A stretch of 64,000 nucleotides of DNA from Minisyncoccota bacterium. GTDB lineage: Bacteria > Patescibacteriota > Minisyncoccia > UBA6257 > GWB1-50-10. The notes below the pieces were generated by a model. That model saw only the letters and a program-made list of their open reading frames with translations, had not been told where the DNA came from and did not search any database. A program made the position numbers and the translations under genes. How positions within the stretch are numbered: the stretch's first letter is position 1; each line of letters begins with the position of its first letter. Below are positions 15,935 through 55,153 of the stretch, piece by piece. Location: contig DATLZO010000019.1 in the NCBI GenBank assembly GCA_035573955.1, positions 161-64,160 of the forward strand, read 5' to 3'.

Positions 15935-16141
15935 ATGGGTGGCGTACCAGTAAAACATCATTCCAAATCCAAAGTCGGCCGGCGGCGGTCGCAGCTCGCT
16001 TTGAAAAAGCGGCGCCTTGTGGTTTGCTCGAATTGCAAGGGACCGACGTTGCCACATAGAGCGTGTCCGCAGTGTGGTGCTTACGCAAAGTCAGAAAGAT
16101 CAAACGTCAATGTTGAGAAAGTCCGACCTCCCAAAAATTGA
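15935..16141 (+). CDS. rpmF: 50S ribosomal protein L32
   Basis: HHSKSKVGRRRSQLALK plus CxxC...CxxC zinc ribbon. Confidence 0.85.
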   Translation: MGGVPVKHHSKSKVGRRRSQLALKKRRLVVCSNCKGPTLPHRACPQCGAYAKSERSNVNVEKVRPPKN

Positions 16142-16167
16142 CTTTAATATTTAGGAGGTCGGACTTT
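16118..16167 (+). promoter_or_regulatory. 14-bp-stem hairpin AAAGTCCGACCTCC...GGAGGTCGGACTTT spanning the rpmF stop; its loop contains ACCTCCCAAAAATTGAC
   Basis: read directly; the loop resembles the conserved ATTGACGT upstream element. Confidence 0.35.
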
Positions 16168-19645: not shown

Positions 19646-21397
19646 ATGAACTCGGAAACAAAAACCTGCCAGAATTGTAAGCAATCTTTTAAGATTGAGG
19701 CGGACGACTTTAATTTTTACGAAAAAATTAATGTTCCGCCGCCGACGTGGTGTCCCAACTGCCGGGCGCAGCGGAGATTGATTTTCCGCAACGAGCGAAC
19801 CCTATATAGAAGAAAATGCGACCTCTGCGGTAAAGATATCATTTCAATTTTCCATAAAGATAGCCCGCAGACCGTTTACTGCCAGCCATGTTGGTGGTCG
19901 GACAAGTGGGATCCGACTTCATACAGTCGCGATTACGATTTCTCTCGTCCGTTTTTCGAACAGTTCCTCGAGTTATACCGGAAAGTACCGTTGCCGGCAC
20001 TCTCCACTTTTTATACGACTTTAGTGAACAGTGAATATGTCAATCAAGCCGGATATATGAAGAATTGCTACCTCCTCTTTGATTCGGACTACGACGAGAA
20101 CTGCGCTTATGGAACGGAGGTTGAGCACAGTCATGATTGTTTTGATTGCCTGATGATAAACGGCTGTAGCCTTGCTTATGAGTGTGTTAACTGCCAGAAG
20201 TGTTACGAGATTTTTTACTCTATGGATTGCGATAACTCACATCACGTCTGGTTTTCCCGAGATCTTATCGGCTGCTCTTACTGTTTCGGTTGCACGAATT
20301 TGAGAAACAAGCAGTATCATATTTTCAACAAGCCTTACTCGAAGGAAGAGTATGAGAGAGAAATAAAGCGGCTAAGTCCCAATTCCAAAGAGAAAGTTCT
20401 GGAGATGAAAGAAAAAGTCGAAGAGTTCTTTCTTACTTTCCCACGTAAGTACATTCGCGGTCGGCAAAACACCAACGTTTCGGGCGATTATATCCATCAT
20501 TCCAAGGAAGTGTTCAATTCTTACATCGTTACCGAAGCACAGAATTGCAAGTATTGCATGTGGTTAATCGTGAAACCCATAAAAGACTGCTGGGATTACG
20601 CGGGGTTTGGCAACAACGCCCAGAATATGTATGAAAACATGAATTGCGGCCAAGATGTAAGCGATATTAGTTTTTCGTCGTTTGTATTTATATCTTCTTC
20701 TCGCATTAAATACTCGATATTTTGTTATTCTTCTCAAGACCTATTCGGCTGTGTCGGTCTGCGTCGAAAATCTTACTACATCTTCAATAAAGAATACTCT
20801 AAAGAAGACTATGAAAAGCTTGTTCCTCAAATAATTGAGCATATGAATAAAATGCCCTATACCGACGGTAAGGGGAGGGTTTACAAGTACGGAGAATTCT
20901 TCCCGCCTGATCTTTCACCTTTCGCTTATAACGAAACGACGGCGATAGAGTATTTTCCGCTGACCGAAACGGAGGTTCTAGAGAATGGTTACAGTTGGAA
21001 GGAAACTGAGAAACGCGACTACAAAGTAACAACTGTTGGACCAGAACTCGAGTGGGTCATAGGCTGCGAGCACGGCGGCAAGTGCAATCATAATTGTACG
21101 ACTGCCTTTAAATTGATACCCCAAGAACTGCAATTTTATAAGAGGATGAATATTCCTTTGCCTCAACTTTGTCATAACTGCCGGCATCACGAACGATTGG
21201 GGCAGAGAAATATTTTCAAACTCTCCCATCGGCGGTGTCAGTGCGCAGGTGCAAGTTCGGAGAATAAAGTCTACCAGAACAACCATTCCCACTTCCACGG
21301 TGCCGAACATTGCCCCAACGAATTTGAAACTTCTTATTCCCCTGACCGGAAAGAAATTGTCTACTGCGAACAGTGCTACAACACCGAAGTCGCATAG
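19646..21397 (+). CDS. large cysteine-rich protein, paralog 1 (583 aa), with duplicated terminal zinc-ribbon-like modules
   Basis: N- and C-terminal modules share C..C...F.I...FY.K.N.P.P..C.NCR..RRL.FRN...LY.R.C..C; centre is full of CxxC pairs with an internal repeat LRNKQYHIFNK / LRRKSYYIFNK. Confidence 0.7.
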   Translation: MNSETKTCQNCKQSFKIEADDFNFYEKINVPPPTWCPNCRAQRRLIFRNERTLYRRKCDLCGKDIISIFHKDSPQTVYCQPCWWSDKWDPTSYSRDYDFSRPFFEQFLELYRKVPLPALSTFYTTLVNSEYVNQAGYMKNCYLLFDSDYDENCAYGTEVEHSHDCFDCLMINGCSLAYECVNCQKCYEIFYSMDCDNSHHVWFSRDLIGCSYCFGCTNLRNKQYHIFNKPYSKEEYEREIKRLSPNSKEKVLEMKEKVEEFFLTFPRKYIRGRQNTNVSGDYIHHSKEVFNSYIVTEAQNCKYCMWLIVKPIKDCWDYAGFGNNAQNMYENMNCGQDVSDISFSSFVFISSSRIKYSIFCYSSQDLFGCVGLRRKSYYIFNKEYSKEDYEKLVPQIIEHMNKMPYTDGKGRVYKYGEFFPPDLSPFAYNETTAIEYFPLTETEVLENGYSWKETEKRDYKVTTVGPELEWVIGCEHGGKCNHNCTTAFKLIPQELQFYKRMNIPLPQLCHNCRHHERLGQRNIFKLSHRRCQCAGASSENKVYQNNHSHFHGAEHCPNEFETSYSPDRKEIVYCEQCYNTEVA

Positions 21398-28912: not shown

Positions 28913-29570
28913 TTAAAGTCCGACGGATTTCATCCTCGAGCGCCACTTGATAATTTCAAATTGGGCAAGAAGATGAACTTTTTTACAAGTTCAGGGTCTT
29001 CTAGTTAAAGTAATCGAGCAGAGATAAATTACTCAACAGAGTAAGTTACTCAAATTAAGGGTGGATGGTGGATGCCTAGACACCGAACGGCGAAGAAGGA
29101 CGTGGCGTAGCTGCGATAAGTCTCGGGGAGGTGCGTAGCAACCTTTGATCCGGGAATGTCCGAATGGGGAAACCTGGTAGAGCAAACCTCTATCACTTCA
29201 ACGCAAGTTGAAGAGCGTACCCAGGGAACTGAAACATCTAAGTACCTGGAGGAGCAAAGAACAATAGTTTATTCCGCAAGTAGCGGCGAGCGAAAACGGA
29301 AGAGCCTAAACTGAGCTTTCGACGCAAGTCGGACGCTCAGGGTTGAAAGAGTGAGAACGTCTTTCGAGCTTGAAAGCTTTGAGCTTGAAAGGAGAAGTTA
29401 CAAATCCATTGGTTAGTTGAATCCGCTGGAAAGCGGAGCCATAGTGCGTGATAGCCGCGTAAACGAAAACCAGTGGACTTCTCAGTTTTTATTTCTTAAG
29501 TACCGCGAGGCCAACTAACCTTGTGGGAATCCGGGAGTACTGTCTCCTAAGGCTAAATACGTTCGGCGAT

Positions 29571-29607
<37 letters not shown>

Positions 29608-29672
29608 CAGCCCGGTTAGGGCGGTGAAATAGTACCTGAAACCATCCACTTACAAGGAACAGGAGCTTTATC

Positions 29673-29836
29673 GCTATCGCTCAAAGTTCCTAAATTCTAA
29701 GCACGAAATCCAAAATTCTAAATAAATTCTAAACTCCAATGTTCAAGATTCAAAACGTTTTGAACATTTGGATTTTAGTGATTGGAGTTTGTTTAGGATT
29801 TAGAAATTAGAAATTAGGATTTGGAAACTTCGAGCG
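29673..29836 (+). other. AT-rich hairpin insertion (IVS-like) at the 23S helix-25 site
   Basis: ~160 nt imperfect palindrome of TTCTAAA/TTTAGAA-type repeats between GGAGC and the conserved GAGTGACTGTGTGCC. Confidence 0.6.
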
Positions 29837-30526
29837 GTAGCGAGGAGTGACTGTGTGCCTATTGAAGAATGAGCCAACGAGTTTACGTACGCTGCAAAGT
29901 CTAAGCCCCCTCGGGGGTGGAGGCGCAGCGAAAGCGAGTCTTAATAGGGCGAATTTAATCAGTAACACAAGCCTTTTAAGAGGATTGTGTTACCGGTTAA
30001 TAAGCAACGTGCGTAAGACCCGAAACCAGACGAGCTTGCCCTGGCCAGGATGAACTCCCGCGAAAGCGGGAGGGAGGTCCGCACCGGTGAGTCGTGCAAC
30101 GCTCTCGGATGAGCTGGGGTAAGGAGTGAAAAGCTAATCGAGTTTGGTAATAGCTGGTTCTCTCCGAAATAGTTTTCGGACTAGCCTCATATGTTTCCTT
30201 TTGGAGGTAGAGCACTGGAAGATGCGAACAGGGCGCAAGCTCGTCGCATCTATCAAACTCCGAATGCCAAAGGGTAAAAGTATGGGAGTCAGACTGTGGG
30301 GGCTAAGCTCCATGGTCGCGAGGGGAAGAGCCCAGATCGCCGTCTAAGGTCCCAAAGTTCGTACTAAGTGTCAAAGGTAGTTCGTGTCCACAAACAGATA
30401 GGAGGTTGGCTTAGAGGTAGCCATCCTTTAAAGAGTGTGTAACAACTCACTATTCGAGGACGCGGGCGCCAAAAATTTACCGGGGCTCAAGTACGACACC
30501 GAAGACGCGGGCCGTTGCGGAGCAAC

Positions 30527-30645
30527 GGAAATCCTAAATCCAAAATCCTAATTTCTAAACAAATCCCAAATCTCAAAATCCAAAACTTTTTTGAGTTTGG
30601 AATATTTGAATTTGTTTAGGATTTAGAGATTAGAATTTAGAGTTT
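30527..30645 (+). other. AT-rich hairpin insertion (IVS-like) at the 23S helix-45 site, homologous to the helix-25 insertion
   Basis: flanked by GGAAA/TTTCC; shares TTTGTTTAGGATTTAGA(A/G)ATTAGAA with the 29673-29836 insertion. Confidence 0.6.
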
Positions 30646-32048
30646 CCGTCGCTTCGCGACGGCGGTAGGAGAGCATTCCTTGTGCTGCGAAGTCCGATCC
30701 GTGAGGGCGGATGGAGCGCAAGGAAGAGAGAATGTTGGCATGAGTAATCAGCAAAGCGCGTGAAAAACGCGCTCCCCGCAAATCCAAGGTTTCCTCCGCA
30801 ACGCAAATCGACGGAGGGTTAGGCGGCCCTAAGGCGATGGCGAAAGCCGCAGCCGAAGGAGTGCCGGTTAATATTCCGGCCCACCATGCATTTTCGATGG
30901 GGTGACGGAACGCAGTAAGTTCGGTGCCTTAATGGTTTGGCATCCTTGACCGAGAGTGAATTCCAGGGAAATCCGGAATTCTGTCTTCAATGACGAACTT
31001 CAGGGTAGAGGCGAGGCGAGGTTTTTACCTTGCCAAGCGGACCGAGCGCGTTTCCTAGAAAAACCTCTAAGGTTAAAGTGCATAGTTCCGTACCGTAAAC
31101 CGCCACTGGTGGATGAGGCGAGTAGCCTAAGGGGAACGAGTGATTTCTCGCTAAGGAACTCGGCAAAAAAGCTAGGCGTAACTTCGGGATAAGCCTTGCC
31201 TGCCGCAAGGCAGGCCGCAGCTAAAGTTTCTCTGGCGACTGTTTACCAAAAACACAGCTCCCTGCGAACTCGCAAGAGGATGTATAGGGGGTGACACCTG
31301 ACCGATGCGAGAAGGTTAACGGCGGGGACGTTGCGCAGCAATGTGCAAGGTTCACTGCCCGAAGCCCTCGTCAATGTCAGCGGTAACTATAACCGTTCTA
31401 AGGTAGCGCAATTCCTTTCCGGGTAAGTTCCGGAGCGCACGAAAGGTGTAACGACTGGAGAACTGTCTCAGCGAGAAGCTCGATGAAAATGCGATACCCG
31501 TGAAGACGCGGGTTACCGGCAGCAAGACGAAAAGACCCCGGAAGCTTTACTGCAGTTTGGTATTGTTATTAACGTTTGGATGCGTAGCGTAGTGGTGAGC
31601 CTTCGAAGCCGGGATTTCGGTTCCGGTGGAGGCGACAATGAAACAGCCATCTTTCAAGTGTTAATATCTAACCTCTAGGGCCAAAAACCTAGAGGGACAG
31701 TGCCTGACGGGCAGTTTAAATGGGGCATTTTCCTCCTAAAAAGTAACGGAGGAGTCTATTAAGGTCAGCTTGGCGCGGATGGAAATCGCGCCGGACGTGC
31801 AAAGGCATAAGCTGGCTTGACTGCAAGGCTGACAAGCCGCGCAGGCGCGAAAGCGGAGCTTAGCGACCCGACCATTCTTTATAGAAAGATGGGAGACAAC
31901 GGCTAAAAGTTACTCCGGGGATAACAGGCTAGTCTGGTCCGAGAGTCCCTATCGACGACCAGGTTCGGCACCTCGATGTCGGCTCATCACATCCCGGGGC
32001 TGGAGAAGGTCCCAAGGGTTTGGCTGTTCGCCAATTAAAGTGATACGT

Positions 32049-32089
<41 letters not shown>

Positions 32090-32127
32090 TGTTGTCGGCG
32101 TTAATGCTTGAGGGAAGTCGTCCCTAG

Positions 32128-32892
32128 TAAACGACAAATTGCTACTTCACGAAGTAATTCGTGATGACAAAGCGGCTAATAACGGTGGAATCTTAATATT
32201 TGATTATCACCATCGGTCTTGGTGATAATTTACTTGAGGACCAAGAGATGTTAAGATAATACCGTGGGAAGTCGGTCTAACATTCACTATGCGTACATTG
32301 CGGGTTTCCTCGATGGTGACGGAAGCCTCATGTTGCAGGTGAAGAAACGCAAAGAAGGGAAATTGAAACGGCGTTTCATGTTCACGATTTGTTTTTATTA
32401 AGACAGTCGTCATGAACGTCCGCTTTTCTGGATTCGTAGAGTGCTCGGCATTGGTTATATTTCCCGTCGGAATGACGGTATAACCGAGCTGCGCATCAAC
32501 GGTTACAAACAAGCTGCGAGAATATTAAGGGAACTACTGCCGTTTCTAAAATTCAAGAAGCGGCAGGCGGAGGCAATATACAGCGCGGCAAAGCTTTTAG
32601 CGCAAAAGGCGCGAAAAAGATTAACGCGGCAGGAATTGCAGCGGCTTGTGAACTGGATCCTTGTAGTTCAAAAAGAAAACTACGTTACCAGAAAAAAGAA
32701 AACGAAAGCTGATTTCTTGAAGATGTTAGATTTGACCCCGTAACGACTTGTTCCGGATGGCAAGTCCGGACGGAGTTGGAAAATGCGAAGCTATCATTTT
32801 TCAGCTAATACGCCGCCTCCAAGCCCCGGTTTTGAGAAAACTGGAGCTGGATGAAGATATAGTCTACGCACGTAGTGATACGTGGTTACGTG
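32128..32892 (+). mobile_element. group I intron in 23S domain VI, splitting CCUAGU^ACGAGAGGACC at the sarcin-ricin loop
   Basis: exon sequences rejoin to the conserved SRL; intron ends in G; GATATAGTC P7-like core; contains the LAGLIDADG ORF. Confidence 0.7.
32264..32743 (+). pseudogene. intron-encoded single-motif LAGLIDADG homing endonuclease (I-CreI-like) with an in-frame TAA at 32399-32401
   Basis: YIAGFLDGDGS motif; GIGYI...LPFLKFKKRQAEA aligns to I-CreI; the stop falls where I-CreI has Gln (CAA to TAA). Confidence 0.65.
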
Positions 32893-32971
32893 ACGAGAGG
32901 ACCGGGATGAACGAACCTCTGGTCTACGAGCTCTACCACCAGGTGGAATGCTCGGTAGCTATGTTCGGACG

Positions 32972-33005
<34 letters not shown>

Positions 33006-33049
33006 CTCCCAAGATTAGGCGGAGCGTCCTCTGTACAAATTCCGCGATT

Positions 33050-33290
33050 ATTGGCCAGAAAGATTTTTTATATCTGGCTAGGCGCGAGGAGTGATGTGTA
33101 GTCGAAGACTACATGAGCGACGAGCAACAACGCCAGAAGAAAAAAGATTCTGGCCCGTAGGGAAGCTCAAAATTAAGCGATCTCTGCGTTGCTCCTCCTC
33201 AATGTGGTTTTCGACCACACTTTCGTCGTCGCATCTTGAGCTCATCATAATTTTGAGCTTCCAATACATCGTGGCATTTGTGCAGAGGGC
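33050..33290 (+). other. ~230-nt expansion insertion near the 23S 3' end (helix ~98 region)
   Basis: between CATCTAAGCGCGAAGCCTCTCCCAAGATTAGG and GTGGAAGACTACCACGTTGATAGGCC, where E. coli has ~50 nt; several local hairpins. Confidence 0.45.
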
Positions 33291-33459
33291 GCCGGATTCG
33301 TGGAAGACTACCACGTTGATAGGCCATAGGTGTAAGCGCGGCAACGCGTTTAGCCGAGTGGTACTAATAAATCCGAATTCTCGATATCTTTAGCTTGAGG
33401 ACCCCGGACTTGTCAAAAAGCTCATCTTTAGTCCACTGATCGAGCACCAAGGTTTTTGT

Positions 33460-33574
33460 TTGCTGGTGTTTCACTCGCACGTGCTCCACCTCTTCCCATT
33501 CCGAACAGAGAAGTGAAAGCGTGCGAGCCTGATGATACTGCGCTTCGCGCGTGGGACAGTAGGGTATGCCAGCA
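33460..33574 (+). rRNA. 5S rRNA
   Basis: CCATTCCGAACAGAGAAGTGAAAGCGTGC...GGGACAGTAGGGTATGCCAGCA; ~80 nt after the 23S. Confidence 0.85.
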
Positions 33575-33611
33575 TACAAAAGCCCTGGTGCTTTTTGTTT
33601 GGAGCGGTTCC

Positions 33612-38789: not shown

Positions 38790-38833
38790 TTTCCGGGCTT
38801 GCTTTTTACCAAAAAATGCGCTTATATTGTTTT

Positions 38834-39193
38834 CGGTAAGTCAAGCGATAGCTCCGATTCCGCAAGGTTTTGGAGAGGAAAGTCCGGACACCCTCCCGGC
38901 CGTGCGCCGGGATAAAAATGTAGCGGATAACGTCCGTCGTCCGCAAGGATAGAGGTGCGAGCAGTGACGTCCCGAGCCGAAAGGCGAGGGAGGACCTAAT
39001 CTCAAGCTAATCGGTCCAATCCCGCGATAGAGATAGAAAAGCGGGAGTGAAACGGCTAAATCCTTACAGGGTGCAAGGCTGTGCCCCGGGAGACCGGGGA
39101 ATGCCGCTCGAGTCCGGGAGTAATCCCGGTCCTAGATGAATTATCGCTAAGGTGTATAATCACCCGAAACAGAATCCGGCTTACGACTTACCG
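38834..39193 (+). ncRNA. rnpB: RNase P RNA (bacterial type)
   Basis: GAGGAAAGTCCGGAC (P4 5' strand) and ACAGAATCCGGCTTAC (P4 3' strand); P1 pairing CGGTAAGTC/GACTTACCG; terminator follows. Confidence 0.85.
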
Positions 39194-39195
39194 CA

Positions 39196-39227
39196 GAAAC
39201 CCGCCGCAAGGCGGGTTTCTGTTATTT
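39196..39227 (+). terminator. rho-independent terminator of rnpB
   Basis: GAAACCCGCC-GCAA-GGCGGGTTTC then TGTTATTT. Confidence 0.6.
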
Positions 39228-42719: not shown

Positions 42720-43481
42720 TTAGAGATAACCGATTTTTTTAAGCCATTCTATATTTTCCCATTCCCAAAGTTTCTTCGCGCCGAGGAATGCATCGAAGTC
42801 TTCTTGCCAGTAGGGGAATTCTTTGAGTTCTATCCTGCCCTCGAGCGGACCCCATTCGTGTTGGCAGACTTGCATGAAAGCGTTGCCCCACTGTGTTTTT
42901 ATCTTATCCCGACCGCCCTTAGAGCGGAGTATGGCGCTGCAATGGACGCAGAAACGGCTCTGGTCGATGCGCAAAATCCACCTCGTCTCCAGATTTTTCA
43001 CTTGTTCCTTCATTGCCGCGAGATAGGCCGAGGTCTGGAGATTATAGTCGCGGTAAATTTCCTGCGATGTTTTAATGTCCAAAATGCCGAGTTTGCCGTC
43101 GATGAGTGCGATTGCGTCCAATGTCCCGGCATAGCGGTGCTCGTAGTTTACGAGACGGTGCTCAACGTAGTTCGGGTCTACCTGGATGTTGCGGTCGACT
43201 AAAAATTCCAAGAATGCCTTAATAGAAGGGCGGATGCGCTCGGGTATTTCCGGTTTCTCACCAAGGAGGATTTTTTCTGCCGCTTCGTGGATCTGCGTAC
43301 CTTCGGTAGCAGAGTTCATTTTAATGCGTTCGCCGGCCGCAAAGTTTTCGACATTTGCGTAGAAGCGGTAGAGGGCCGGTTTGGACTTGATTTCCACGAT
43401 TTTCGTCACCCGCGGGTACCAAAATCCGTCTACTTCGTAGCCGCAGAGTGATTTGAAATGGTTTTCGTCGGAGTAGTACAT
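42720..43481 (-). CDS. PD-(D/E)XK nuclease, Cas4/RecB-like family (one N-terminal plus three C-terminal Cys)
   Basis: GTLDAIALIDGKLGILDIKTS (D...D.K), Cys13 plus CVHC...C arrangement typical of Cas4/AddB Fe-S nucleases; no CRISPR array in the window. Confidence 0.65.
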   Translation of the reverse strand: MYYSDENHFKSLCGYEVDGFWYPRVTKIVEIKSKPALYRFYANVENFAAGERIKMNSATEGTQIHEAAEKILLGEKPEIPERIRPSIKAFLEFLVDRNIQVDPNYVEHRLVNYEHRYAGTLDAIALIDGKLGILDIKTSQEIYRDYNLQTSAYLAAMKEQVKNLETRWILRIDQSRFCVHCSAILRSKGGRDKIKTQWGNAFMQVCQHEWGPLEGRIELKEFPYWQEDFDAFLGAKKLWEWENIEWLKKIGYL

Positions 43482-44931: not shown

Positions 44932-45429
44932 TTATAAAAGCCATTTCCACGGTTTCCTCCTACTTTTATATTTTTCCATTTCCGACTTTATTTTCTGTAA
45001 TTTCTTTAAGTCAGTATCATTCCAGTTCACCTTAGAGAATTTTTTCTCTCCTGGAATTCTTGTTTGTCTGTTTCTTTGTAGGATGTTTAGAGCCTCTTTC
45101 CATAATACATAGTCGTATTTCTTTTTAGCTCTTAAAACGTGGTTATCAAAAAATGGTACTACTTTCTCTACGAGATCGTTCAAGTTATTTATCTGGAGCC
45201 TCGCTTGACCGTTTCTATTGAAAATGATGCCGCAGCTTAAGGTTTGTTTGATATTTTCTAGTATTTCTTTGTCATCATCACGCAACACTATAGCAAATCC
45301 TATTTTCCAATAAAAATAGACCGGCTTATTTTTCCTGTCGTGTCTAACATCGCGTCTGAAATTTATATAAAAACAACCCTCGCCGTCTACAAAGCCGGCA
45401 ATGTAATCACCAGGTAATTTTTCTCCCAC
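44932..45429 (-). CDS. free-standing LAGLIDADG homing endonuclease (single-motif, 165 aa)
   Basis: YIAGFVDGEGCFYI motif; strongly AT-rich compared with the flanking genes. Confidence 0.78.
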   Translation of the reverse strand: MGEKLPGDYIAGFVDGEGCFYINFRRDVRHDRKNKPVYFYWKIGFAIVLRDDDKEILENIKQTLSCGIIFNRNGQARLQINNLNDLVEKVVPFFDNHVLRAKKKYDYVLWKEALNILQRNRQTRIPGEKKFSKVNWNDTDLKKLQKIKSEMEKYKSRRKPWKWLL

Positions 45430-48511: not shown

Positions 48512-48554
48512 TATTTCAATTATGACACAAAACACCAATAAGGGGAGGTTTAAA

Positions 48555-48600
48555 TTCCCAAATGTTGACGGCAATATTAGGAGGTCAAACCTCCAAAGTT
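48555..48600. promoter_or_regulatory. motif TTGACGGCAAT-n3-GGAGGTCAAACCTCC upstream of gltX, related to the element upstream of Cys-rich paralog 2
   Basis: read directly; partly overlaps the last codons of murG. Confidence 0.3.
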
Positions 48601-49665
48601 TAGGAGTTTTTTAGCGATTTTCTCTGCCGCTTCATGTTTTGAGAAACTTTTAGCGGCTTTTGCCATTGCTTTTGCGATTTTCCCGTTTTTGAGGATTTTT
48701 TCAATTTCGGTTTTCATAGTTTGCCAGTTTAGGTCGCTTTCTTCCACCACCACGGCCGCTCCGGTGGCAGCGTATTCATAGGCATTGGCTTTTTGATGAT
48801 TGCTTGCCGCACCTTCGAGCGGAATTAATATGGAAGGTTTCCCAAAAGCGGCGATTTCAAAAATGGCGCTTGCGCCGGCGCGGGAAATAACGAGGTTGGT
48901 TTTTGACAGCGCTCGCTTTAATTCTGCGGCGTCTAAAAATTTCACTGGGTGGTAGTTTTTGGAAGCACTATAATTAATTATAGCGCCGACATTATTTTCA
49001 CCCGTTTGATGAAGAATGCTCCCCAATTTTAATAATTCTTTAAGGTGCGCGGAGATAAAAGAGTTAATGCAGGCTGCTCCTTGGGAGCCGCCAAGCACCA
49101 AAATAGACACTCTAACATTCTGCAAAATACTGGAATGTTGTGGTTTTGTTGAATCTTTCAGAAGATCGGCGCGAATGGGGTTGCCTATGAGTTCGGTTTT
49201 GTTTTTCGGGAAGTATTTTTCGGCGTTTTTCCAAGCGATGAAGATTTTCTTTGCAAAAATCGCCGAGAGACGGTTCGTGAGTCCCGGTACGGCGTCGGAA
49301 TCATGAATCACAACCGGCACGAAAAAACACCGGGCGGCCAAGACTACCGGGAGCGCCCCCGGTCCGCCTTTGGAAAAGACTAAATCTGGCTGGATGTAGA
49401 AAATATGAGCCAGTGATTGAAAAATACTCCAGAGAAACTTAAAAATGTCGGTAAAGTTCCGCCAGTCAAAATAGCGGCGGAGCTTGCTTGAGACAATCGA
49501 CAGTGTTTCGATGTTTCTTTTTGTAAACTCGACGTTCAAAGGGTGATTCGGGCCAATGTAGTGAAGTTGAACTTCACTAGATTGTTTTTGGATTTCTTCG
49601 GCTACCGCCACAAGCGGAAAAATATGTCCGCCCGTTCCCCCGCCTGTTAGTACAATCTTTTTCAT
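48577..49665 (-). CDS. murG: undecaprenyldiphospho-muramoylpentapeptide beta-N-acetylglucosaminyltransferase
   Basis: KIVLTGGGTGGHIFPLVAVAEE GT28 N-terminus. Confidence 0.9.
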   Translation of the reverse strand: MKKIVLTGGGTGGHIFPLVAVAEEIQKQSSEVQLHYIGPNHPLNVEFTKRNIETLSIVSSKLRRYFDWRNFTDIFKFLWSIFQSLAHIFYIQPDLVFSKGGPGALPVVLAARCFFVPVVIHDSDAVPGLTNRLSAIFAKKIFIAWKNAEKYFPKNKTELIGNPIRADLLKDSTKPQHSSILQNVRVSILVLGGSQGAACINSFISAHLKELLKLGSILHQTGENNVGAIINYSASKNYHPVKFLDAAELKRALSKTNLVISRAGASAIFEIAAFGKPSILIPLEGAASNHQKANAYEYAATGAAVVVEESDLNWQTMKTEIEKILKNGKIAKAMAKAAKSFSKHEAAEKIAKKLLNFGGLTS

Positions 49666-51437
49666 ACTACTTCGGCGTTATAACATAGCTCGCAGTACAC
49701 AATCTCCGGTCTGTCGGGGGCGTAGGAGGTTTCAAATTCGTTGGGGCACCTCTCTTCTGGGTGATGGCTGTGTTTTGAGGAATTTTGATAGACTTTATAG
49801 TCACACATACACTCACGGTGCCAGAGTTTTATAGGGGTACGTAACGCCTGCCTTTCTTCATTTCTACAAGCAGGACAAAGTATTGGAATAGGTATATTCA
49901 TTTGCCGGTAGAGTTGAAGTTCTTGGGGGACTATTTTAAATGCGATGGTACAATTATGCCCGCACTTTCCTTTATGTTTACACTCAATAACTTCGCGTAA
50001 AATATCATCACTCACTTCTTTAATGGATTGTGGAATTTCGTCAGGATGTTTTGTCGGTTGATACTCTCTTTTTTTCTCTCCTGCCCACTGGCACCCTGAG
50101 AGTGTAAACTCACCTTCCTTTGAAGGAAAATAAAACTGAGTCATAGCTTCGTTATACGCAAATGGTGAAAACTCTGGCGGGAAAAATTCGCCATATTTAT
50201 AAAAGTTACCCGCAGAGTCAAAATAGGGGTTTTCACTCATTTCTTTGCTTATTTTATTCTTAAGCTGTAAGTAGGTTTCTTTGTCATACTGCTTATTCAA
50301 AATACAGTACTGTTTTTTTCTTAGACCTATACATCCGAAAAGGTCTTGGCTACCGCGGCAGTAATCGCAGTATTGCACACGAGCGCAGTTCTCAAAAGAG
50401 TTAGTGGAAAAGTAAATGTTTGAATCAAGGTATCCCACATTAACCCCCTCATAGAGTAAAGCTGCTTCTTTATCCCCCACTCCAAAAACATCATGAGAGT
50501 CTTTGGCGCGAGCCATTTGAACGCCGTATTTCACATCTTCACAGCTTTCGGCGTTAAAACAGCGGACTGCGTTTTTGCATTGAAACAAATTGTTGCCGGA
50601 GGAATTGAGGCATTTTACAATGTTGGCGTGCTTGTGTAGCACGCTTTTCCGCATGTGCAAGTATTCTGATAAGAGCCGAGCTAAATTTTCTCGGTCATAG
50701 GTTATTTTACTAAGCTCTCGACGATATTCATCTTCGTTAAGCTGTTTGTTGCGGAAAATGAATTTTTTATTGCGTAAATTGCTACTCATAAAACAATCTG
50801 AAGAATTGCGGCAATCGTACAAAAAAGCACTATCTAAACAATCTTTGCAGTCAGATATGAACTTGCAATTAACGCAGTGCTCCGAGTCAATGGCGTGATA
50901 AACTTTCTCACAGTTCATGACTGTTGTGGAGTCAAACACGTCCCGACCGCCGTAAACTGTTTTGGAATAAGCAACGTTATCAGAGCTTATGGTTGTTGGC
51001 GACAGATAAATATTTTTTGAAAACCAAGTATAATCTGAGTAAGATGAATTCTTATTTTGATATGCCTCTAAATTTGGTCTGGGTACGGCATCGGAAAGTT
51101 CTTTCCACTGAACAAAGAATCCTTTGCGAGAATCATAGTCCAAACCGTACTGGAGCGGATCCCATTTATCAGACCACCAACAATCGTTGCAATATATCGG
51201 AAAACTAACCTTATCTGAATAGTGAGAGATACCTTCCTTATTGCATAGTCCGCATTTATATCGGTACATATTGAATTCATTGCGAAATAACATTCTCCTT
51301 TTCATACGGCACTCCGGGCACCACGTCGGCGCCGGAACATCTATCTTCCTGTAAAAATCAAAATCCTCCGGTTCGATTGTGAACTGGTTCTTGCAATTCT
51401 GGCAAATTTTAGTTTCGGATTGCATGTTTCTTTTCAA
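49662..51437 (-). CDS. large cysteine-rich protein, paralog 2 (591 aa), located between ftsW and murG
   Basis: same architecture as 19646-21397; termini conserved (CQNCK..F.IE..DF.FY.KI.VP.PTWCP.CR and CPNEFETSY.PDR.EIVYCE.CYN.EV). Confidence 0.7.
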   Translation of the reverse strand: MKRNMQSETKICQNCKNQFTIEPEDFDFYRKIDVPAPTWCPECRMKRRMLFRNEFNMYRYKCGLCNKEGISHYSDKVSFPIYCNDCWWSDKWDPLQYGLDYDSRKGFFVQWKELSDAVPRPNLEAYQNKNSSYSDYTWFSKNIYLSPTTISSDNVAYSKTVYGGRDVFDSTTVMNCEKVYHAIDSEHCVNCKFISDCKDCLDSAFLYDCRNSSDCFMSSNLRNKKFIFRNKQLNEDEYRRELSKITYDRENLARLLSEYLHMRKSVLHKHANIVKCLNSSGNNLFQCKNAVRCFNAESCEDVKYGVQMARAKDSHDVFGVGDKEAALLYEGVNVGYLDSNIYFSTNSFENCARVQYCDYCRGSQDLFGCIGLRKKQYCILNKQYDKETYLQLKNKISKEMSENPYFDSAGNFYKYGEFFPPEFSPFAYNEAMTQFYFPSKEGEFTLSGCQWAGEKKREYQPTKHPDEIPQSIKEVSDDILREVIECKHKGKCGHNCTIAFKIVPQELQLYRQMNIPIPILCPACRNEERQALRTPIKLWHRECMCDYKVYQNSSKHSHHPEERCPNEFETSYAPDRPEIVYCELCYNAEVV

Positions 51438-51496
51438 TTTTGCGAGGCTCGACCTCCATGCGAATTGACGTCAATGTTTGGGAGGTTAAACCTCAA
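51438..51496 (-). promoter_or_regulatory. conserved upstream element of paralog 2 containing the perfect palindrome ATTGACGTCAAT and GGAGGTCGAGCCTC
   Basis: aligns with the region upstream of paralog 1 (ATTGACGT...GGATGTCGGAAGTCC...ATTGAAAG). Confidence 0.4.
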
Positions 51497-51500
51497 ACGT

Positions 51501-52619
51501 TTAACGTCTATATCTTGATACATTTACTATAATCCCGCTCATTGTGAGAAATACAGCAAGCGCGGTTCCGCCGAAACTGATGAAGGGCAGGGGCACGCCC
51601 GTGAAAGGAATAAGACCGGAGACGGCTCCTATATTTACAAAAGCCTGGAAACCGATTAGAGAAGCGAATCCTATCACAAGGAAGCGTCCGAATGCGTCCG
51701 GCACCTTCCTTGTCATGTTGATGCATCGGAGTACTAGAAACCCAAACGCGAATATGAGAAGGCCGCTGCCAACAAAACCGAATTCCTCCGCGATGACGGC
51801 GAAGATGGAATCCCCTATCTGCTCCGGAAGCTGTTTTAGTTTGGAAACGGAGTTCCCGTAGCCAACGCCCCAGATCCCACCGGAGCCGATGGCAAGTGTC
51901 GTTTTTTCAACCTGGTAACCGGTTGAAAGAACGTCGGCCGTCTCTGGCTCGAGGAATGTTCGTATTCTCATAATGCGGTAATTATCCTCAGGAAGCGTGT
52001 AGGCTGCGACTAAGAGAGCTATAACGGTGACGAGAATAGCTCCGACAAAAAATCTTATCTTGGCGCCAGCGGCAAAGTACATACAAAATGCCGAGGCCGC
52101 AATGAGAAACGCGGTGGTTGTGGATGGTTGTTTTAAAATGAGGAACGTGACGATACCGACCAGGATTATAAACGGCAGAAATCCCTCGCTCAAACTTTTA
52201 CCCCTCTTCTCGTTTTTGGCGAGCCAGGCGGCGATGTAGAGCACGAAAGCGAGCTTCAAAATTTCCGCTGGTTGGAAGCTAATAAAGCCCAGATCGAGCC
52301 ATCGCGTCGCGCCCTTGGTTAGGAGCCCGAGCGGCGAGAAAAGGAGGAGGAGCATGACCAGCGCGAGGAGAAAGAATGGCAATGCAAGTTTTTCCCACCT
52401 CCGGTAATACGTGAAAGCGGTAACGAGAAACCCAGCAAGACCGAAGGTTAAACCGTGAAGTAGCTGGTTTTTGAGGTAATAATAACTGTCACCAAACTTA
52501 GATAGACCAAGGTCGGACGAAGCGCTCGTGAGCATTGTGAGCCCGAAGATGGTTAATACAACCACTATTCCGACGATAACGAAGTCCGCGGACGAAGTTG
52601 GCCTTGGTGATCCCGCCAT
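51501..52619 (-). CDS. ftsW: SEDS-family peptidoglycan glycosyltransferase FtsW/RodA
   Basis: 10-TM profile; GVGYGNSVSKLKQLPE, DSIFAVIAEEFGFVG. Confidence 0.87.
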   Translation of the reverse strand: MAGSPRPTSSADFVIVGIVVVLTIFGLTMLTSASSDLGLSKFGDSYYYLKNQLLHGLTFGLAGFLVTAFTYYRRWEKLALPFFLLALVMLLLLFSPLGLLTKGATRWLDLGFISFQPAEILKLAFVLYIAAWLAKNEKRGKSLSEGFLPFIILVGIVTFLILKQPSTTTAFLIAASAFCMYFAAGAKIRFFVGAILVTVIALLVAAYTLPEDNYRIMRIRTFLEPETADVLSTGYQVEKTTLAIGSGGIWGVGYGNSVSKLKQLPEQIGDSIFAVIAEEFGFVGSGLLIFAFGFLVLRCINMTRKVPDAFGRFLVIGFASLIGFQAFVNIGAVSGLIPFTGVPLPFISFGGTALAVFLTMSGIIVNVSRYRR

Positions 52620-52620
52620 T

Positions 52621-54084
52621 TTACCCGGCGCGCAGAACGCTTCCGCTTGCGACTGGTTTGAAATTGCCGTCCATCAGTGCGACTTTACCGTTTATGACAA
52701 CGTCGCGAGGTTTGAAGTCGCGTAGAACGACAAGATCGGCAAAGTAGTTTTCTTTAATCAGGCCGCGGTTCTTTATCCCGAATTTTTCAGCCGGACCGCC
52801 CGTTGCTTTTTGGACTGCTTTCTCAAGCGGTATACCAATACCACTCGCAGCCCGGAGAAAGTTCGTGAAAGCTTCATACTTTCCCGTTGCTCCAGAAGAG
52901 ACAAATGATGACGGAGAAGCAGCGAATTCGGCGGCCATTTTATCATCGACGTTCCGCAAGAGAACCACGGCGCGCAGGTGAGAAAGACGCATCAGACGGA
53001 GAATAGCTTCTTCTTTTCTTAGCTCGTGGCTTATTGCGAAATCGTCCAAGGTCCGACCGTTTAAAAAACCGAGCGGCGGTGGAGCGGAAAAGATGATTAT
53101 TTCGTCCACGGACACTTTTTTCAAGTGATCAAGAATCCCCTTCTCTAGGCGCGACTCTCTCAAGGAATCGTTCATTGTATCGAGATTTCCGCGTTTCACG
53201 GTAGGCGGCAGAAGCTGGTAGATGGGTATTTTAATGACGCCCTCAATATTGCAGTCGAAATGGACATGGGTTCCTGCAGTTTCTGCTTCTATCGTTTCTT
53301 TGGCTCGGACGTAATTATTCCGGAACCCTAGGACCGGCTCGAGATGGCTTATTTCCACCTTTGCTTCCGTTTCCTTGCCGAGTTTTATTGTTTCTTCCAC
53401 AGCCGGTATTAGTCCTTCGGTGTAATCGCGCAAATGGATGGAAACTACGCGATTTTTTGCAGCGGCGAGCCGGCAGAGTTCCGAGATCTCCTTAAACGGC
53501 GTCATTTTGGCGTGAGCGTAATCGAGACCGAAAGAAATACCGAAAGCTCCTTGAACCAGCGATTCCTCGACAATCTTTATCATTGCCGCTGTTTCCCGGT
53601 CTGTAAGATCACGCGCATCCTCGCCGAGTAAGCCCCGCCTGACGGTGCCGTGGCCGACAAGTGTTCCGAAATTAACACCCAAACTGCGCCTTTCAATGGT
53701 TTTCAGAAAATCGGAGATTCCACGCCAGCCTACGTTTATTTTCGATATGTCGCCCCACTTCCGGAGTGAGAGCATGGAAATTCCGAAGACGGGGAAAAGT
53801 GAGGAGCCACAGTTACCGCCGAGAACCGTAGTAATTCCTGCCATGACCAATTTTTCGCCGGTGGGGTCGTTTAGTATTTCCAGGCGGTGGTCGAAATCGG
53901 AATTAATATCGATGAAACCAGGCACAACAATGCCTCCGGCGGCGTCAAGGAGCACATCAGCTTCTTTTTTAGGGAACGAGCCGAGCCTGACGATTCGGCC
54001 GCGTCTCACAAGAATATCAGCTTTCTTCGGCGGTTCGCCGGAGCCGTCGTAGACAAGCCCGTTTTTGACGAGAACGGTCGGCAT
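52621..54084 (-). CDS. amidohydrolase family protein (N-acyl-D-amino-acid deacylase-like)
   Basis: VKNGLVYDGSG...ADILV..GRI...DAAGGIVVPGFIDINSDFDH metal-dependent amidohydrolase N-terminus. Confidence 0.72.
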   Translation of the reverse strand: MPTVLVKNGLVYDGSGEPPKKADILVRRGRIVRLGSFPKKEADVLLDAAGGIVVPGFIDINSDFDHRLEILNDPTGEKLVMAGITTVLGGNCGSSLFPVFGISMLSLRKWGDISKINVGWRGISDFLKTIERRSLGVNFGTLVGHGTVRRGLLGEDARDLTDRETAAMIKIVEESLVQGAFGISFGLDYAHAKMTPFKEISELCRLAAAKNRVVSIHLRDYTEGLIPAVEETIKLGKETEAKVEISHLEPVLGFRNNYVRAKETIEAETAGTHVHFDCNIEGVIKIPIYQLLPPTVKRGNLDTMNDSLRESRLEKGILDHLKKVSVDEIIIFSAPPPLGFLNGRTLDDFAISHELRKEEAILRLMRLSHLRAVVLLRNVDDKMAAEFAASPSSFVSSGATGKYEAFTNFLRAASGIGIPLEKAVQKATGGPAEKFGIKNRGLIKENYFADLVVLRDFKPRDVVINGKVALMDGNFKPVASGSVLRAG

Positions 54085-54106: not shown

Positions 54107-55153
54107 TTAGGCGAAACGGGCGAGGAAGAATAGAACCAAACCGAAGGTTGTGGCCACCGCCGAGATTATCCAAAAACGCATTGTTATCTGGCTTTCTATC
54201 CAGCCAATTCCTTGGAAATGGTGGTGAATGGGAGCTGAAAGGAAAACTTTTTTACCGCGAAATCTTTTAGAAATAACCTGGATTATAACCGAAAGCGACT
54301 CGCCGACAAGAACTATACCGAAGAATGGGAGGTAGAGCGCCGTGTTGGTTAACATTGCCATAACGCCCAGTGTAATACCAAGAGACATCGAGCCAGTGTC
54401 GCCCATGAAAAAGCGGGCTGGATGAATATTGAACCAAAGGAAAGCGAGGAGCGCACCCAGGATCGCGGCGTTCATGGCAGCCAGGTCGAAGCGTTGGAGG
54501 ATAAAAGCGACGACTGCCATTGCGGCGAAGGAGAAGAAAAGCGTTCCGGCTGCAAGGCCGTCAAGGCCGTCTGTCTCGTTCGCAGAAAATGCCGTGGCAA
54601 CTATGACGAATACGAAGAATGGGATATACCACGGGCCGATATAGATATTCCCTAAGAAAGGAACGTAGAGAACGTCCCAACCGAGTTTAAAGAAAAACCA
54701 CCAAGCGCCTACCAGTGCCACGCCGGTGTAGAGCAGGAGTTTTTGCTTGATGGAAAGCCCTCCGCCGTGCGGTCCTTTGCCCAGAATACCGAACATATCG
54801 TCGATCAGGCCAACCACCGCCGTGAAGAAAAGTGTCGCTAGCGGCAAGTAGGTTTCGGCCCGGTTCACGAAGTCGAAATAATTGGCGAAGCCGTCGAGGA
54901 AGGTCCGAAGAACGAGGAAAACGGCGGCCATTCCAAGAACGGTTGCCCAAATGATGATGCCGCCCATGGTGGGTGTTTGAGATTTGTCTTTGTGAAACCG
55001 ATAAAAAATCGGCGCTGTCTTTTCGTCGCGGATGTTTTTCTTCTTTAAGCCGTACTTCTCTAGAAAGTGCGCTACGAATGGTGTGATGAAGAGTGCGACG
55101 ACGAAAGCGAACGCAAAGATGATGAGAACTCTTACCGCTTCAAATACAAGCAT
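54107..55153 (-). CDS. mraY: phospho-N-acetylmuramoyl-pentapeptide transferase
   Basis: FFMGDTGSMSLG and other MraY motifs; 10 TM helices. Confidence 0.92.
   Translation of the reverse strand: MLVFEAVRVLIIFAFAFVVALFITPFVAHFLEKYGLKKKNIRDEKTAPIFYRFHKDKSQTPTMGGIIIWATVLGMAAVFLVLRTFLDGFANYFDFVNRAETYLPLATLFFTAVVGLIDDMFGILGKGPHGGGLSIKQKLLLYTGVALVGAWWFFFKLGWDVLYVPFLGNIYIGPWYIPFFVFVIVATAFSANETDGLDGLAAGTLFFSFAAMAVVAFILQRFDLAAMNAAILGALLAFLWFNIHPARFFMGDTGSMSLGITLGVMAMLTNTALYLPFFGIVLVGESLSVIIQVISKRFRGKKVFLSAPIHHHFQGIGWIESQITMRFWIISAVATTFGLVLFFLARFA

Follow-up and report, generated by a model that had tools for sequence, protein, structure and literature searches.

A cysteine-rich gene between ftsW and murG in a Minisyncoccota genome lies in a lineage-specific slot with non-orthologous occupants

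In canonical division and cell wall (dcw) clusters the genes are ordered mraZ-rsmH-ftsL-ftsI-murE-murF-mraY-murD-ftsW-murG-murC, and we know of no dcw cluster with a conserved gene at the ftsW/murG junction. Here we analyse P2, a cysteine-rich gene which is found at this junction in the genome of a Minisyncoccota bacterium. The window is the whole stretch of DNA that was analysed, 64,000 nucleotides of contig DATLZO010000019.1 (GenBank assembly GCA_035573955.1, positions 161 to 64,160 of the forward strand), which belongs to a metagenome-assembled genome of Paceibacteria (Patescibacteria). P2, its direct neighbours and its paralog P1 are located in the window as follows:

51501-52619, minus strand: ftsW (SEDS family), directly upstream of P2 (Pfam, NCBIfam)
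49662-51425, minus strand: P2, Cys-rich gene of 587 amino acids (~69 kDa, pI 6.6), with an alternative TTG start at 51437
48577-49665, minus strand: murG, whose ATG overlaps the P2 stop (Pfam, NCBIfam)
19646-21397, plus strand: P1, paralog of P2, 583 amino acids, between smc and rpsP

Zinc binding has been measured by inductively coupled plasma mass spectrometry for small proteins of Methanosarcina mazei with the spacing CxxC-x17-CxxC (PMC12704099). A 2025 survey found about two homologs of VirD4-like type IV coupling proteins (T4CPs) per Patescibacteria genome, mostly far from virB4 and with an unknown role, and could not rule out their exaptation for other functions (PMC12102498).

An earlier sequence-only reading of this DNA had suggested from the position of P2 that it has an envelope or division accessory role. 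We consider it probable that P2 is instead a selectively maintained member of a Paceibacteria-specific, multi-paralog zinc-finger/solenoid family which is lodged in a lineage-specific slot, and that its function cannot be read from its position. The place between ftsW and murG is such a slot, with non-orthologous occupants, and the dominant genomic partners of the family are not division genes.

Slot synteny was compared in 80 metagenomic loci anchored on relatives of the FtsW of the window. These loci share the conserved cluster scpA-scpB-dac-mraY-amidohydrolase-ftsW-murG-gltX-M23-...-murC. A murG downstream of ftsW is present in 43 of the loci and is the very next gene in 38 of them, and P2 is an insertion relative to this adjacency, as the sequence-only reading had proposed. 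Family genes lie between ftsW and murG in one of the 43 loci, L083, whose flanking proteins are 65-82% identical to those of the window and which is its closest relative. The order in L083 is ftsW, an open reading frame (ORF) of 127 amino acids, two family copies and murG. Both copies share only 39% identity with P2, and the occupants of the slot in different genomes share 36-44% identity and are not orthologs. With this single locus, and with the orthologs of P2 found elsewhere, the step from position to an envelope or division role is not supported.

The murG-proximal copy of L083 meets murG in almost the same DNA as P2 does (...TGTTATAACGCnGAAGTAGTATGAAAAA..., with the protein end CYNAEVV*/ATGA). 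Since both genomes share this junction, the slot predates their split, and the sequences indicate that it arose in the common ancestor of the window genome and L083. As the junction is shared and the occupant differs, we infer that the occupant was exchanged in a cassette-like replacement. Such a replacement is consistent with the base composition of P2, which is the minimum of the cluster in GC (0.406) and in GC at third codon positions (GC3; 0.422, compared with 0.47-0.60 in its cluster neighbours: ftsW 0.566, murG 0.471, mraY 0.596), and with the identical stretches of ~20 nucleotides which P1 and P2 have at both gene ends. P1 has an overall GC of 0.434, also below its neighbours (smc 0.513). 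We considered P2 as a fusion of the two slot copies of L083 and rejected this, because the windowed identity of the body is 18-52% and not above the family background. In L083 mraY is split into two overlapping ORFs of 233 and 137 amino acids (L083:6438-7504), perhaps through a frameshift or an error in the assembly.

The orthologs of P2 itself were identified at 64-69% identity, and seven of the eight database clusters were examined. Their contexts are:

L001: array of at least seven family copies downstream of a TraG-like ATPase
L003: two family copies, then uvrB
L163: downstream of a ZIP transporter and convergent with M23-gltX-murG-ftsW at a distance of ~1.6 kb; ftsW and murG adjoin each other in this cluster
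L165: two family copies, then NUDIX, then mraZ-rsmH-penicillin-binding protein-mur ligase
L166: array of six family copies, then infA-rpsM-rpsK-rpsD
L167: two family copies, then greA-aspS
L168: AbiEii, P2 ortholog, murD-like gene, with murI adjoining

Peptidoglycan genes are close by in three of these seven contexts, and the other four are unrelated. A recurring link to ftsW and murG, for which the sequence-only reading had proposed comparative synteny as a check, is mostly not supported: all seven orthologs sit in other contexts, and family-wide FtsW accounts for 2 out of 141 close same-strand neighbours. Any gene of the peptidoglycan cluster is found within 20 kb in ~8 of 80 family loci, which is roughly the chance level for genomes of ~0.8 Mb. 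What is left of the link are the peptidoglycan genes near some members of the P2 subfamily and a few occupied slots, which are weighed below.

The neighbours most often found with the family are ATPases of the VirD4/TraG/TrwB/DUF87 type, with 21 of the 141 close neighbours, followed by 11 carriers of zf_Tbcl_2, 8 CutA1, 6 GrpE and 5 DnaJ. One or both of two ATPases are present in 29 of the 80 family-anchored loci, compared with 1 of the 80 FtsW-anchored loci. The smaller ATPase has ~490 amino acids, is 70-85% identical between genera and usually follows two small membrane proteins. The larger one (~700 amino acids) is soluble and has a CxxC-x17-CxxC finger of its own, similar to the second finger of the P2 module (hhalign E = 9e-5). 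A frequent order is dnaK - large ATPase - family copies - small ATPase - dnaJ - family copy. Examples among the ATPase loci (L001, L004-L082) are L020:6364-9830, L021:4746-9664 and L022:1682-9960, and dnaK, dnaJ, grpE and CutA1 are often interleaved.

From this neighbourhood we tentatively suggest that the family may work with the DnaK system and the soluble orphan ATPases of the VirD4/TraG type rather than with FtsW or MurG, a proposal we hold with some doubt. The P2 locus itself lends it no support, as the window contains neither a T4CP-like ATPase nor CutA1 nor dnaK. More speculatively still, the Cys-rich proteins might be parts of an undescribed Paceibacteria system, in which tens of ancient, non-redundant zinc-solenoid paralogs would serve the orphan VirD4-like ATPases as clients, adaptors or co-assembling subunits; P2 would then be one cassette, moved from slot to slot by recombination at the conserved ends of the genes. 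If such a system is real, the paralogs together would make up several per cent of a minimal genome.

Several observations weigh against the reading of P2 as a family member in a slot without functional meaning. With the window included, the P2 subfamily has eight contexts, four of which (window, L163, L168 and L165) are at or near peptidoglycan genes, and this could reflect a loose functional neighbourhood with peptidoglycan genes rather than shared ancestry. The ftsW|murG slot holds family members in three further genomes, L083, L023 (four copies) and L027 (two copies), and in L041, L042 and L072 family members sit at other junctions of this cluster. The ATGA junction with murG is kept in two lineages, the window and L083, which makes a stable co-expression with murG plausible. 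Moreover, a T4CP-like ATPase, CutA1 and dnaK are absent from the 64-kb window (tblastn for the ATPase and CutA1).

Part of this evidence would also be expected if P2 were an envelope or division accessory, as the sequence-only reading had it, which acts together with FtsW and MurG and owes its place between them to co-regulation. The tight operon packing, the ATGA overlap with murG, the lack of a terminator-like site at either junction of P2, the same murG junction in L083, the family members in the slot of L023 and L027 and the peptidoglycan genes near half of the subfamily contexts all fit such a role. Against it stand the adjacency of ftsW and murG as the norm in the related loci, the non-orthologous slot occupants, the scarcity of FtsW among the family neighbours and the near-chance frequency of peptidoglycan genes around family loci. 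The P2 contexts near peptidoglycan genes, in genomes that are related, lie at four different junctions, and the paralog P1 sits between smc and rpsP. Furthermore, no transmembrane segment or signal peptide was found in the sequence of P2; with its near-neutral pI this indicates that P2 is a cytoplasmic protein. The case for a division accessory is one of position, and since the family is placed in many different Paceibacteria operons, the position of P2 is weak evidence for a division role, which we regard as improbable.

The relatives of P2 form a large family. A word-indexed search returned more than 7,700 matches, all annotated as hypothetical and all with Paceibacteria lineage names, among them Jorgensen-, Lipton-, Nomura-, Giovannoni- and Staskawiczbacteria. 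An exhaustive profile search gave 5,332 clusters (50% identity) at E <= 1e-3 and 2,177 at E <= 1e-30, nearly all of them full-length with 550-600 amino acids. No relatives were found in phage, plasmid and IMG/VR collections. In 80 species-level loci there are 229 family copies, with 1 to 11 per ~20 kb. Two or more copies are present in 53 of the 80 loci, with a maximum of 11 in L019 (12 by a looser ORF scan), and all 99 family-family adjacencies are co-oriented. The median identity is 43% both between tandem copies of one locus and between random pairs from different genomes, and for 196 of 204 family sequences the nearest relative is in another genome, indicating that the tandem copies are ancient paralogs and not recent duplicates. 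Two members of one 50%-identity cluster are rare in one genome.

P2 and its L163 ortholog share 69% identity, while the FtsW, MurG, GltX, M23 and amidohydrolase proteins of L163 are only 33-53% identical to those of the window. P2 is intact, and the comparison indicates that it is under strong constraint.

From its N-terminus to its C-terminus, P2 is built of a double zinc-finger module, a pair of beta-solenoids, a conserved linker and another double zinc-finger module:

51171-51404, minus strand: N-terminal double zinc module, residues 8-85, with eight invariant Cys
50703-51035, minus strand: beta-solenoid module 1, residues 131-241
50250-50594, minus strand: beta-solenoid module 2, residues 278-392, homologous to module 1
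50085-50201, minus strand: linker YGEFFPxE.SPFAYNE...YFP...G..W, residues 409-447
49671-49982, minus strand: C-terminal double zinc module, residues 482-585, homologous to the N-terminal module

Invariance of residues was judged on an alignment of 57 homologs. Sixteen Cys are invariant and form four sites of the CxxC...CxxC type, two at each end of the protein, which imply that P2 probably holds four structural Zn sites. In the N-terminal module these are CxxC-x24-CxxC (C8, C11, C36, C39) followed by CxxC-x17-CxxC (C58, C61, C79, C82), with a predicted beta-hairpin plus helix, and in the C-terminal module C482, C492, C517, C520, C539, C560, C578 and C581. The two finger modules are homologous (residues 10-85 against 491-585, hhalign probability 99.1%, E = 1.3e-18). 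By analogy with the M. mazei proteins, P2 would bind zinc. The two solenoid modules of ~110 residues are also homologous to each other (profile-profile comparison of sub-alignments, probability 99.5%, E = 2e-22), and each ends in the motif C..C...LRNK.Y...N...KEEY, in module 1 in the version C..C...LRNK.Y.F.N...(S)KEEY. The invariant residues of the linker are G412, E413, F414, P416, Y424 and W447.

No usable whole-protein relatives of P2 were found in Pfam (E <= 10), NCBIfam, PADLOC, PHROGs and the PDB sequences, with a single query as well as with a profile. The zf_Tbcl model (Pfam: PF13451) matches the N-terminus below threshold (15.2 bits, cutoff 24), and P2 has no match to zf_Tbcl_2 (Pfam: PF23477); of its relatives, P0022 passes the PF23477 threshold of 27 with 28.6 bits and P0089 stays below it with 25.4. 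The hexapeptide, bactofilin and pentapeptide beta-helix families gave no Pfam match to P2 even at E <= 10. A literature search on the family (Cys-rich proteins in candidate phyla radiation bacteria, zf_Tbcl accessions, Parcubacteria zinc ribbon paralogs) returned nothing. As far as the searchable literature shows, the family picture is new: the building blocks, fingers and solenoids, are known, and the architecture and the genomic organisation are undescribed.

The deep and individually conserved paralogs, mostly one per genome and subfamily, would fit hetero-oligomeric or polymeric zinc-solenoid assemblies with P2 as one subunit, in analogy to the CCT and proteasome sets or to bactofilin-like filaments. 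The higher conservation of P2 compared with FtsW, MurG and GltX and the beta-solenoid core point the same way, and the homologous end modules could pair head to tail. Oligomerisation of the family is purely hypothetical, however, the copy number per locus varies widely (1 to 11-12) and no bactofilin or other filament family of Pfam matches, so we consider such assemblies quite improbable.

With ~34 Cys per protein, the family may alternatively handle zinc or other metals, in buffering, storage or delivery, as metal sinks or metallochaperones. In L163 and L164 the P2 ortholog directly follows the gene of a ZIP-family transporter, and CutA1 is among the recurrent neighbours (8 of 141). Yet the 16 Cys of the four finger sites are regular, invariant and of a structural type, and the remaining ones are partly conserved; the large folded solenoid architecture of 69 kDa is unlike metallothioneins; and the ZIP neighbour occurs in one lineage only and CutA1 in some lineages only. 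We regard metal handling as very unlikely.

The ORF on the minus strand, 49662-51437 with 591 amino acids if read from TTG, was confirmed as real. The likelier start is the ATG at 51425 (587 amino acids, N-terminus MQSETKICQNC), because it aligns with residue 1 of P1 and of the orthologs. P2 has 35 Cys in 587 amino acids (6.0%), and P2 and P1 are the only ORFs with more than 5% Cys among all six-frame ORFs of at least 150 amino acids in the window. They are 42% identical over the full length (E = 2e-152), in agreement with the earlier view of P2 as a zinc-binding, Cys-rich paralog. The NCBI protein for the P2 gene, P0001, has only 493 amino acids (100% identity, 84% coverage), so the deposited annotation appears to omit the N-terminal zinc-finger module.

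On the minus strand, Pfam and NCBIfam give the gene order scpA, scpB, D-Ala-D-Ala carboxypeptidase-like gene, mraY, amidohydrolase, ftsW, P2, murG, gltX, M23 peptidase, LAGLIDADG ORF and murC. The order from mraY to murC had been read in the same way from the sequence, except that the LAGLIDADG ORF between the M23 gene and murC was not listed. The stop of P2 and the start of murG overlap by the four nucleotides ATGA (GTAGTATGAAAA), as first reported. The distance of 63 nucleotides from the ftsW stop to P2 applies to the TTG start and becomes 75 nucleotides with the likelier ATG. No terminator-like sites were found in a search of the ftsW/P2/murG junctions. Upstream of ftsW lie:

54107-55153, minus strand: mraY (Pfam, NCBIfam)
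52621-54084, minus strand: amidohydrolase-fold gene in the murD position (Pfam, NCBIfam)

The earlier remark on an amidohydrolase in the position of murD was correct, and nearly all relatives whose FtsW is at least 45% identical (L083-L158) have the gene at this place, between mraY and ftsW. It consistently lacks the metal-binding HxH dyad, with PGFIDINTxSDHYL instead of the canonical PGxIDxHxH. In more distant relatives a murD-like ligase is found between mraY and ftsW in place of the amidohydrolase.

The LAGLIDADG endonuclease ORF (44932-45429, minus strand, 165 amino acids, GTG start) is free-standing, with no ribosomal RNA (rRNA) or protein-coding host gene around it. Directly after murC, the cluster ends with an ORF of the PD-(D/E)XK nuclease family (42720-43481, minus strand). 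Elsewhere in the window, in the region 29048-33575 (plus strand), a 23S rRNA match spans 3,068 nucleotides compared with the 2,925-nucleotide model, with 5S ~1.3 kb away; no 16S rRNA was detected within the 64-kb window. RNase P RNA is found at 38833-39198.

A palindromic hairpin repeat of ~65 nucleotides has four copies in the window, two of which flank the P2-murG pair:

51435-51503, minus strand: copy filling the ftsW-P2 spacer
48535-48602, minus strand: copy spanning the murG stop and the murG-gltX spacer, overlapping the last murG codons
35603-35663, plus strand: further copy
16108-16166: further copy

The consensus is ...GAGGTTTRACCTCC..ATTGACGTCAAT..GGAGGTCGAGCCTC..., and its stems show compensatory changes between copies, with predicted folds of -21 to -22 kcal/mol (z ~ -2.9). 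The 15-nucleotide core GAGGTTTRANNTCCC has zero exact matches among 168 loci fetched from other genomes. The element is not specific to P2, since copies are also found at 16.1 and 35.6 kb. A 31-nucleotide inverted repeat around P2-murG was considered as terminal repeats or an insertion scar and rejected, as it consists of two copies of the hairpin element.

Flanking repeats of this kind, together with the low GC3 of P2 relative to its neighbours, the AbiEii gene adjoining one ortholog and the LAGLIDADG ORF nearby, would be expected if P2 had recently been brought in between ftsW and murG as cargo of a mobile or phage-derived element. However, Pfam and NCBIfam reveal no transposase or integrase adjoining P2, whose neighbours are housekeeping genes, the family has no relatives in the phage, plasmid and IMG/VR collections, and the repeats enclose murG as well and recur at two unrelated sites of the window. 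The slot is also old, given the murG junction in common with L083. Recent mobile cargo is the least probable of the explanations considered here.

In the reading that we prefer, these genomes keep many ancient paralogs, often in co-oriented tandem arrays, in the intergenic slots of long housekeeping operons. The arrangement suggests that P2 is transcribed by read-through of the mraY-ftsW-murG-gltX unit and that translation of murG is coupled to P2 through the ATGA overlap. P2 itself would most likely be a zinc-stabilised binding scaffold, whose variable solenoid surfaces may give each paralog its own target.

The family is hypothetical in every annotation and no Pfam or NCBIfam model covers it, and it can take up more than 20 kb of a genome of ~0.6-0.9 Mb, with each paralog strongly constrained. 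As it is lodged in many housekeeping operons, membership of the dcw operon does not indicate a role in cell division in Paceibacteria. The recurrent linkage of the family to T4CP homologs offers a concrete starting point for two unsolved questions about Patescibacteria.

Among the known systems, the orphan VirD4-like T4CP homologs (PMC12102498) are the commonest gene neighbours of the P2 family and resemble it in being highly conserved and lineage-specific, and the larger form has the same finger type. They are ATPases, however, not homologs of P2, and none is found in the window. The narrow beta-solenoids, such as curli CsgA (PDB: 8c50), the ice-binding proteins of ryegrass (PDB: 3ult) and spruce budworm (PDB: 1m8n) and the left-handed beta-helix acyltransferases, score weakly against P2 and have no sequence similarity or Pfam match to it. 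These proteins are secreted or enzymatic, whereas P2 is predicted to be cytoplasmic, without catalytic motifs and with partly conserved Cys in the rungs.

P2 has the same CxxC-(x17-24)-CxxC spacing and predicted beta-hairpin plus helix as zf_Tbcl and zf_Tbcl_2. The known members of these families are small, single-domain proteins of unknown function, whereas P2 has ~590 amino acids, with two double-finger modules capping two solenoids. Finally, the cluster of the window is like the canonical dcw cluster in having mraY, ftsW, murG and murC in the same relative order, and differs from it in the amidohydrolase without HxH in place of murD, in the interleaved gltX, M23 and LAGLIDADG genes and in the insertion of P2 between ftsW and murG.

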